Below are positions 12,081-12,713 of a stretch of 14,378 nt of DNA, in pieces. The notes beneath the pieces are model-generated. The model saw only the letters and a list, made by a program, of their open reading frames with translations, searched no databases and was not told where the DNA came from. Position numbers and translations under genes: made by a program. The stretch is from a virus. Its lineage: Duplodnaviria > Heunggongvirae > Uroviricota > Caudoviricetes. Within the stretch, counting starts at the first letter, position 1; each line of letters opens with the position of its first letter. The stretch lies in the IMG/VR virus record IMGVR_UViG_2706794664_000003; one strand, given 5' to 3'.

Positions 12081-12502
12081 TCAATGCACTACGACAGAAT
12101 CGCCGGGCGACCCACCACCGCTGAAATGTGCTTTCCGGTAAACGGCCTGGACAGCATCATCATGCGCATCAATTGCCGTACTCAACGCTTCCTGCGCCGC
12201 CAGTAATGCACGGCGTTCCAGGGTATCGAAGATGCAGAGTCGGTGACGCAGCTCGCGCGGAAGAATTGCCAGAACCGCAGGGATCAGTTTCTGAATTTTT
12301 TCCCTTTGCGCTTTCGTTTCACCTTTCAACCAACGGTGATAGATATTCTGCTGATTGTTCCAGTCCTTGCCTGGTACCAGAGACAATTCGCCGCCCCCCT
12401 GCCGCAGATATTCTTCAGTAATTGCGTTAGCGACCCACGCCTGCCCTTTTTCGGCTGCCAGGGCAACAGCACTGATTCGATGTGCTCATGCCTGATTTTC
12501 AT
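12081..12502 (-). CDS. YdaT-like protein, frame interrupted near the 5' end
   Basis: ATG at 12502-12500 (AAGGTG upstream), inside the 3' end of the Cro-like gene in another frame, gives MKIRHEHIESVL and then runs out of frame. The protein-like frame ...ALAAEKGQAWVANAITEEYLRQGGGELSLVPGKDW... (to the stop at 12081) has no start. One extra base in about 12440-12470 joins them into a 140-aa protein. The YdaT name is a tentative recollection. Confidence 0.5.
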
Positions 12503-12713
12503 GAATCACCTTCCAAGGTCGTTTTGCCTTACGATATTCGTCATAAACTTTGGGGTCGTACTGAAGTTCCCCGCCAGATGCCTCTTGCAGGCGCATCGCG
12601 CGACCTTCAGGAACCAGTTCCCCCCATGCAGCAATGCTTGCCAGCCTAACTCCTGCGGCATTGGCAAGCTTTGTTTTGCTGCCAAAAAACGCTATAGCAT
12701 CAATTTTCAACAT
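12486..12713 (-). CDS. dicC: Cro-like HTH regulator (DicC/YdaS family)
   Basis: 75 aa MLKIDAIAFFGSKTKLANAAGVRLASIAAWGELVPEGRAMRLQEASGGELQYDPKVYDEYRK...; AGGAG 6 nt upstream of the ATG; divergent from the repressor; resembles Qin DicC as recalled. Confidence 0.75.
   Translation of the reverse strand: MLKIDAIAFFGSKTKLANAAGVRLASIAAWGELVPEGRAMRLQEASGGELQYDPKVYDEYRKAKRPWKVIHENQA

Follow-up and report, generated by a model that had tools for sequence, protein, structure and literature searches.

A one-base deletion in the immunity-region gene ydaT of a defective lambdoid prophage, Shigella sonnei type

Within a defective lambdoid prophage of Shigella sonnei, the gene for the CII-analogue activator YdaT appears to have become a true pseudogene through the loss of a single base, a reading to which a probability of about 0.9 is assigned. 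The sequence analysed, hereafter the window, is the whole 14,378-nucleotide stretch of the Caudoviricetes record IMGVR_UViG_2706794664_000003, and the feature under study is taken to lie on the minus strand, where the rightward operon (PR-type) of the prophage immunity region begins. The genes are ordered DicA-like, then DicC-like, ydaT, ydaU-like and ydaV-like (DnaC-type), an arrangement that fits the position of the YdaT family between Cro-type and replication genes (Table 1). The DicA-like repressor gene is presumably transcribed in one direction, and the DicC/P22-Cro-type gene and ydaT in the other, followed by the ydaU/ydaV-type replication genes, with ydaT probably coupled to the DicC/P22-Cro-type gene through a 17-nt overlap. 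Public records name S. sonnei for the proteins only; the species attached below to genome accessions are presumed.

The ydaT start codon (ATG, 12502-12500) lies 17 nt inside the Cro-type gene. The frame opened by this codon reads MKIRHEHIESVLL and then departs from the YdaT sequence, the break falling at codon 13, while the other 127 YdaT codons are found in the frame of the Cro-type gene, which is open from the TGA of that gene to the TGA at 12083-12081 and resumes the YdaT sequence from ‘ALAAEKGQAW...’ onwards. The intact references are the two closest complete genomes, E. coli FDAARGOS_944 and FDAARGOS_943, which are 99.2-99.3% identical to the window over 761 nt and in which the pair is annotated as ‘Cro/CI family transcriptional regulator’ (228 nt) and ‘toxin YdaT family protein’ (423 nt), again with an overlap of 17 nt. 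Against both of these copies the gene pair shows a single indel, at codon 13, where TTA is represented by TT-. The deleted A lies in TTAGCC, outside any homopolymer, and its restoration yields 140 aa, in agreement with the length of the intact genes as annotated. As it stands, the YdaT reading frame is interrupted, by the deletion at 12464/12465 and the stop that follows after 58 codons. Much of this had been proposed in a first-pass annotation made from the letters alone: the Cro-like gene with the ydaT ATG within its last codons and AAGGTG upstream are all present on the minus strand, the 127 codons do continue through the TGA of the Cro-like gene, and one base added within 12440-12470 does give 140 aa, the missing A now being placed between 12465 and 12464. 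The break had been put after 12 codons, a figure that has to be amended, as 13 native residues are kept since TTG still encodes leucine.

The repaired 140-aa sequence is an exact match to ‘MULTISPECIES: toxin YdaT family protein [Enterobacteriaceae]’, which is present on at least 1000 contigs, and it is 94% identical to the YdaT of the K-12 Rac prophage over all 140 residues, with no gaps. It also scores 43.2 bits against Pfam PF06254 (YdaT_toxin; cut-off 21), matches PHROG 163 ‘CII-like transcriptional activator’ (6.3e-37), and aligns end to end with PDB entries 3c4r and 8bt1 (E 2.7e-7 and 1.8e-6, respectively). Residues H56, R57, W58, L107 and A110 are all in place, and the alignments predict a full-length YdaT architecture. 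Because the repaired protein is so close to Rac YdaT and is itself an existing public protein, the deletion can be regarded as the sole defect of ydaT and as recent. The alignment to Rac YdaT had been suggested at the outset as a check, and its outcome favours a frameshift over a fusion, since homologues (Rac YdaT and the exact public match to the repaired protein) span both frames.

Table 1. Coordinates of the features discussed, in positions of the window
Feature	Position	Strand	Remarks
DicA-like CI-type repressor gene, 135 aa, intact	12790..13197	plus	divergent from the Cro-type gene; NCBIfam DicA, Pfam HTH_3
Intergenic region between repressor and Cro-type gene, presumed divergent promoters and operators	12714..12789	.	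inferred from position only
DicC/P22-Cro-type regulator gene, 75 aa, intact	12713-12486 (ATG 12713; TGA 12488-12486)	minus	ORF; Pfam P22_Cro, NCBIfam DicC
Shine-Dalgarno-like AAGGTG	12507..12512	minus	within the Cro-type gene, 4 nt ahead of the ydaT ATG; identical in intact E. coli copies
YdaT-box-like inverted repeat GTGATT-CATGAA-AATCAG	12492..12509	minus	overlaps the ydaT start codon
ydaT, probable pseudogene (CII-analogue transcription activator)	12081..12502	minus	422 nt vs 423 in intact copies; repaired product in YdaT family
ORF read from the ydaT start, 58 codons	12326..12502	minus	13 native and 45 out-of-frame residues; TGA 12328-12326
One-base deletion site	12464..12465	minus	A of Leu13 TTA lost, giving TTG and a shifted frame; alignments with intact copies and 10 assemblies
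CCG AAA AAG in the shifted frame	12446..12454	minus	a -1 slip would regain the YdaT frame; judged insignificant
G6 tract in ydaT (Gly36-38 codons)	12394..12399	minus	unaltered in the window; G7 or G5 in other assemblies
Residual 101-codon ORF, TTG start at 12386	12081..12386	minus	covers YdaT residues 40-140
ydaU-like replication-initiator gene, next in operon	11341..12003	minus	frameshifted near 11540-11550

The gene pair had been likened to that of the Rac prophage, and the likeness holds for ydaT but fails for the gene upstream, which is of the DicC type. The Cro-type protein scores 153.8 bits against the NCBIfam DicC model NF007282 (cut-off 130) and 49.7 bits against Pfam PF14549 (P22_Cro; cut-off 30.2, 3.1e-13), and it is 74% identical to K-12 DicC. 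Conversely, BLASTP of this protein against K-12 YdaS returned no alignment, and its score against Pfam PF15943 (YdaS_toxin) is 20.4 bits, below the cut-off of 30, which together rule out a YdaS identity; DicC/Cro-type is thus the better name. The divergent repressor matches the NCBIfam DicA model NF007257 at 237.3 bits (cut-off 101) over 135 of 135 positions and is 62% identical to K-12 DicA, and its exact sequence occurs on at least 1000 contigs. A simple sigma-70 promoter and terminator scan of positions 11900-13300 found no PR/PRM-type sites and no reverse promoter inside the Cro-type gene, and a repeat scan of the intergenic region found no operator repeats.

The start of ydaT coincides with a putative YdaT-box, an inverted repeat with the exact core TGATT-N6-AATCA at 12493-12508, where 0.65 matches would be expected per window at one mismatch or fewer. 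The similarity to Rac begins exactly at TGATTCATGAAAATCA round the ydaT start and is absent upstream, and this comparison of sequences marks the region as mosaic, the two parts meeting at the box. The core TGATT-CATGAA-AATCA is shared with Rac, where it also lies over the start codon, the outer bases being G...G here and A...A in Rac. A second near-match to the box, at 12068-12083, was rejected as statistically weak and not conserved in Rac.

The distribution of the deletion among public genomes bears directly on its nature. Ten independent assemblies of the Shigella type (L003-L012) were retrieved by way of the exact 101-aa ORF and then aligned, and eight of them carry the same loss of an A at codon 13 (L004-L009, L011 and L012); HE616528, which we take to be S. 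sonnei 53G, is among the eight. In CP000266 (L010), presumably S. flexneri 5 str. 8401, TTA is intact and the G6 tract downstream is G7 instead, and in CP026824 (L003) TTA is likewise intact and the tract is G5. A G5 tract is also found on top of the A deletion in L004 and L007, and some of these differences in tract length may be platform errors. A compensating second frameshift was considered and rejected, as G6 is unaltered in the window and the extra -1 in L004 and L007 leaves the frame unrestored. All eight assemblies with the deletion also have the substitution G67W in the Cro-type protein (GGG to TGG, a G-to-T change at 12515). The 101-aa sequence is identical to the ‘putative bacteriophage protein [Shigella sonnei Ss046]’ (Q3Z436_SHISS) and occurs on at least 1000 contigs (1969 index blocks), a count that pools three frameshift alleles and hence overstates the frequency of the codon-13 deletion, for which the 653 contigs named S. 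sonnei/E. coli that encode the exact Cro-type protein of the window, with W67, are a proxy only.

Among 5,426 complete E. coli genomes, a 71-nt segment round the deletion site finds a match in 830, and none of the 830 matches is free of gaps, the best being 98.6% identical and spanning 72 nt. Exact-pattern scans with 38-nt and 23-nt patterns spanning the deletion found no copy in the 185,579 GTDB species-representative genomes, a result that bears on representative genomes only. Judged by these alignments, the frameshift is a real mutation, which an S. sonnei lineage has fixed. Resequencing, which the first-pass annotation had called for, is unnecessary because the same deletion is present in many independent assemblies.

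What has been lost can be gauged from work on related proteins. YdaT is a tetramer; each subunit carries a POU-like helix-turn-helix domain at its N terminus, and the long helix at its C terminus contributes to a bundle of four helices. Helix alpha1 extends from Glu6 to His17, the recognition helix is alpha3, and the target site is TTGATT-N6-AATCAA (PMC9986795). The site bound by Rac YdaT, as footprinted, is ATGATTCATGAAAATCAA, which overlaps the ydaT start codon; from there the protein stimulates a reverse promoter within ydaS by up to 29-fold and so raises the expression of racR, and it further binds the promoter of the host gene rcsA, which it activates (PMC11879457). DNA binding is lost in the double mutant H56A/R57A, and oligomerisation in L107P/A110P (PMC11879457). 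YdaS and YdaT have accordingly been described as Cro and CII analogues and not as a toxin-antitoxin pair (PMC8630535, PMC9986795). The ‘toxin’ label for YdaT is thus misleading, and the earlier view of a toxin-like pair is at odds with the published Cro and CII roles (PMC8630535, PMC9986795, PMC11879457), although it retains some truth in that over-expressed Rac YdaT is toxic, its expression leading to filamentation and death (PMC11879457).

The functional consequences proposed here are extrapolated from Rac and CP-933P. An intact YdaT would act as an analogue of lambda CII, binding the TGATT-N6-AATCA box at its own start and switching on a reverse promoter that feeds repressor synthesis. Because of the lost A the reading frame changes within helix alpha1, ribosomes that begin at the native start meet a stop after 58 codons, and no DNA-binding or tetramerising YdaT would be made. 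Positive feedback of the CII kind on the DicA-like repressor would be lost, as would YdaT-dependent toxicity on derepression, and the retained box would persist as an orphan. The replication genes downstream, broken as they already are, may also be expressed less because of the premature stop. In this decayed prophage the loss of ydaT was probably neutral or mildly advantageous.

One would nevertheless have to consider that part of YdaT survives, in that the 101-codon ORF might be expressed as an N-terminally truncated protein that keeps some function, for example tetramerisation only or partial DNA binding. This ORF retains the recognition-helix residues H56, R57 and W58 and, in the alpha6 tetramerisation helix, L107 and A110 (residue roles from PMC11879457), a G-rich stretch lies 7 nt upstream of its TTG, and its 101-aa sequence is still identical to that of the intact allele. 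However, what is kept is alpha3 to alpha6 without alpha1 and alpha2, of which alpha2 makes up half of the helix-turn-helix motif, and both missing helices belong to a rigid globular POU-like domain (PMC9986795), so that correct folding is unlikely. The TTG is moreover a weak start without a clear GGAGG. That the ORF still matches the intact allele would follow just as well from the deletion being recent, and different frameshifts elsewhere leave the same ORF simply by lying upstream of it. A functional truncated protein is on balance quite improbable.

Still less probable is that recoding rescues the gene, whether by a -1 slip at CCG-AAA-AAG or by readthrough of the Cro TGA to give a Cro-YdaT fusion of 210 aa. 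The appeal of the first route is that AAA-AAG is in phase in the shifted frame, so that a -1 slip there restores the native frame, and that among tetramers A_AA.G shifts most readily in E. coli (PMC4066793); the product would be 140 aa long with five changes (A14P, L15W, A16Q, A17P and E18K). Yet only the tetramer A_AAG (12449-12446) is in phase, the heptamer G_AAA_AAG breaking the X_XXZ_ZZN rule with G as X, and tetramers without a stimulator perform barely above background, at 0.147% vs 0.112% (PMC4066793). The 69 nt of RNA downstream fold no better than shuffled sequences (z = +0.51), which leaves the site without a stimulatory element, and the rescued product would have two prolines in helix alpha1. 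Slippage at CCG-AAA-AAG was rejected on these grounds, and transcriptional slippage was rejected as well, an A5 run being too short for it. For the second route, it is true that the Cro frame is open through the TGA as far as the ydaT stop, but this open frame exists solely through the deletion, as it closes after 19 codons in intact alleles; a designed readthrough fusion is thereby ruled out. A UGA followed by G is also not known as a leaky context. More generally, the two-frame arrangement is unconserved, and nothing appears to have been selected for recoding because all close relatives have one uninterrupted ORF. Traces of product from a -1 slip, from TGA readthrough or from initiation at the internal TTG may nevertheless arise.

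The least credible alternative is that the base is missing through a mistake of sequencing or assembly, the gene being really intact: the window does hold other frame breaks and two N runs, and the G-homopolymer length differences in L003, L004 and L007 do resemble platform errors, but the identical deletion recurs in eight independently assembled genomes, the 101-aa ORF left by it has an annotation in S. sonnei Ss046 and occurs on at least 1000 contigs, the deleted A is in no homopolymer, and the deletion is completely linked to the neighbouring SNP (Cro G67W).

If the codon-13 deletion is accepted as a genuine inactivating mutation, one may ask whether it is the only one of its kind. At least two, and possibly three, different ydaT frameshifts occur in the Shigella-type assemblies, namely the codon-13 deletion, G6 to G7 (CP000266) and G6 to G5 (CP026824), the first of these being absent from the 830 matching complete E. 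coli genomes. Perhaps ydaT was knocked out repeatedly and independently in Shigella lineages, and the pattern could then reflect selection against a toxic factor that rewires the RcsA regulon rather than drift; this is a speculative and rather doubtful proposition. It would run counter to the published suggestion that the toxic ydaT locus ‘remains unmutated’ in E. coli because of a benefit to the host (PMC11879457), and, should independent knock-outs in Shigella exceed what drift would give, it would qualify the idea that hosts retain ydaT as useful. The alternative is less exotic, the loss of ydaT being ordinary prophage decay, and of the kind expected for a Shigella prophage.

Comparison with known systems helps to place the locus. 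Rac YdaT (b1358, P76064) has the same DNA-binding residues H56, R57 and W58, the same alpha6 residues L107 and A110, and the same position after a Cro-type gene and before ydaU/ydaV, and it serves as the intact reference for the copy that is frameshifted at codon 13 here. The Rac locus differs in having YdaS upstream with a gap of 22 nt, where the window has a DicC-type gene with a 17-nt overlap, and in its repressor, RacR as opposed to a DicA-like protein. The YdaT of CP-933P in E. coli O157:H7 (PDB 8bt1), like PDB 3c4r, belongs to the same family by full-length alignment, with the same POU-like helix-turn-helix and tetramerising helix, a site of the TTGATT-N6-AATCAA type and a CII-like role (PMC9986795, PMC8630535). 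It is a distant relative, the published 30% identity being that between the Rac and CP-933P proteins and not that of the window copy (PMC11879457). The CP-933P site lies between ydaS and ydaT, beside a paaR2-paaA2-parE2 module that is absent from the window, and it is the window copy that is probably a pseudogene.

The closest parallel for the immunity type is K-12 Qin, with dicA-dicC-ydfX, to whose DicA and DicC the regulators here show the identities given above. In Qin dicC has the same 17-nt overlap with the next gene, ydfX, and a DUF1391 gene (ydfA type) stands beside the repressor in both. The gene ydfX (96 aa) is a shortened relative within the YdaT family, with 38% identity over 29 residues and a different truncation, and is thus only distantly related to the window copy, which is a Rac-type ydaT. 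The order cro-cII of lambda is also the same, as would be, by analogy, the CII-type activator acting on a reverse promoter (PRE activation) to make repressor (PMC8630535, PMC11879457), whereas in the window the Cro gene and that of the CII analogue overlap and the activator appears to be inactivated.

From the standpoint of annotation, the pseudogene is already known, as both ORF fragments sit in public annotations: the 58-codon ORF is labelled ‘Uncharacterised protein [Shigella sonnei]’ in a few records, and the 58-aa and 101-aa ORFs of S. sonnei are best read as two halves of one ydaT pseudogene. A literature search for ydaT and Shigella found no paper on a Shigella ydaT pseudogene. The pseudogene matters little overall. 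S. sonnei would nevertheless offer a naturally occurring null allele of a Rac-type ydaT, next to a DicA/DicC switch and a putative YdaT-box that are both intact, and this allele could help to test whether YdaT makes such repressors essential and acts on the host rcsA.

The surroundings of ydaT bear the same marks of decay, the prophage being IS-ridden and degraded well beyond this gene. The frameshift in the ydaU-like gene became apparent when three frames were compared with the intact gene of FDAARGOS_944 (262 aa) and with locus L006, which is frameshifted there too. A fragment of an IS600-type orfA adjoins a truncated Rha gene in the window, and in most sister assemblies another IS has inserted near 11896-11900. 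Taken as a whole, the window is closest to the S. sonnei-type loci L006 and L008, with 99.5-99.9% identity and an identical IS600-fragment/Rha junction.

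The substitution of tryptophan for Gly67 in the DicC-like protein accompanies the ydaT A deletion in all of the aligned assemblies that carry the deletion and in none of those that lack it; the change is located 13 nt before the ydaT start codon (ATG). A second kind of variation affects homopolymers. The G6 tract of ydaT (12394-12399, minus strand) is G7 in CP000266 (L010) and G5 in CP026824 (L003), JBEAAA010000004 and JBEAAD010000003 (the last two being L004/L007 among the loci compared), and in L003 the Cro-like gene, too, has G5 in place of G6. These G-tract variants may be either independent true frameshifts or homopolymer errors of assembly.

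In the K-12 Qin prophage (locus L014, 2347-2851), dicC and ydfX overlap by 17 nt, exactly as do the DicC-like gene and ydaT in the window. The 96-aa product of ydfX has weak similarity to the YdaT family (38% over 29 residues, E 9e-7), and this similarity spans the region of the recognition helix. This suggests that ydfX, and perhaps ydfW with it, represents a further CII-analogue gene in decay.

Features of the window, with coordinates
Feature	Position	Strand	Remarks
N run, 113 bases	3562-3674		breaks apparent terminase/portal-region gene
Prophage tRNA genes, 4 in tandem	5863-6173	-	Gly-TCC, Thr-TGT, Arg-TCT, one with CAT anticodon
N run, 252 bases	11037-11288		breaks apparent ydaU/ydaV-like junction
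ydaU-like replication-initiator gene	11341-12003, also 10985-11479	-	frameshifted, break near 11540-11550
Second YdaT-box core near-match, TGATTGAAATTAATCG	12068-12083	-	1 mismatch
Gly67 to Trp, DicC-like protein	12515	-	GGG to TGG
IS3-family (IS600-type) orfA fragment	13632-13865	+	77 codons
ORF with Phage_pRha domain	13855-14337	+	160 codons

The second YdaT-box-like site overlaps the stop codon of ydaT and lies just upstream of the ydaU-like gene. It is statistically weak (at up to one mismatch the window holds three matches to the core against 0.65 expected), and K-12 Rac has no such site at the corresponding position.

Relative to its intact 262-aa counterpart in E. coli FDAARGOS_944, the ydaU-like gene is frameshifted, and the same break is present in comparison locus L006; an N run masks some of the gene in the window. 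The length of its poly-Glu (GAA/GAG) tract varies, with nine residues in the window, 13 in L006 and six in L001. The majority of the retrieved S. sonnei-type assemblies (L004, L005, L007, L009, L011 and L012) carry within this gene, at the equivalent of about 11896-11900, an IS element with an rve-domain transposase, which is absent from the window, L006 and L008 and could be usable as a lineage marker. The window and the same two loci also share the junction at which the IS600-type orfA fragment stops abruptly at the Phage_pRha ORF; full IS copies occupy this position in other S. sonnei assemblies. The Rha genes of the E. coli relatives are 849 nt long, whereas the ORF in the window is shorter, at the 160 codons listed.

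Elsewhere, both N runs are read as X in ORF translations. The G-run at 5449 has six G against five in FDAARGOS_944, where the stretch is without an annotated gene. The tRNA with the CAT anticodon is called Met by ARAGORN, whereas RefSeq assigns its equivalent in FDAARGOS_944 as tRNA-Ile.
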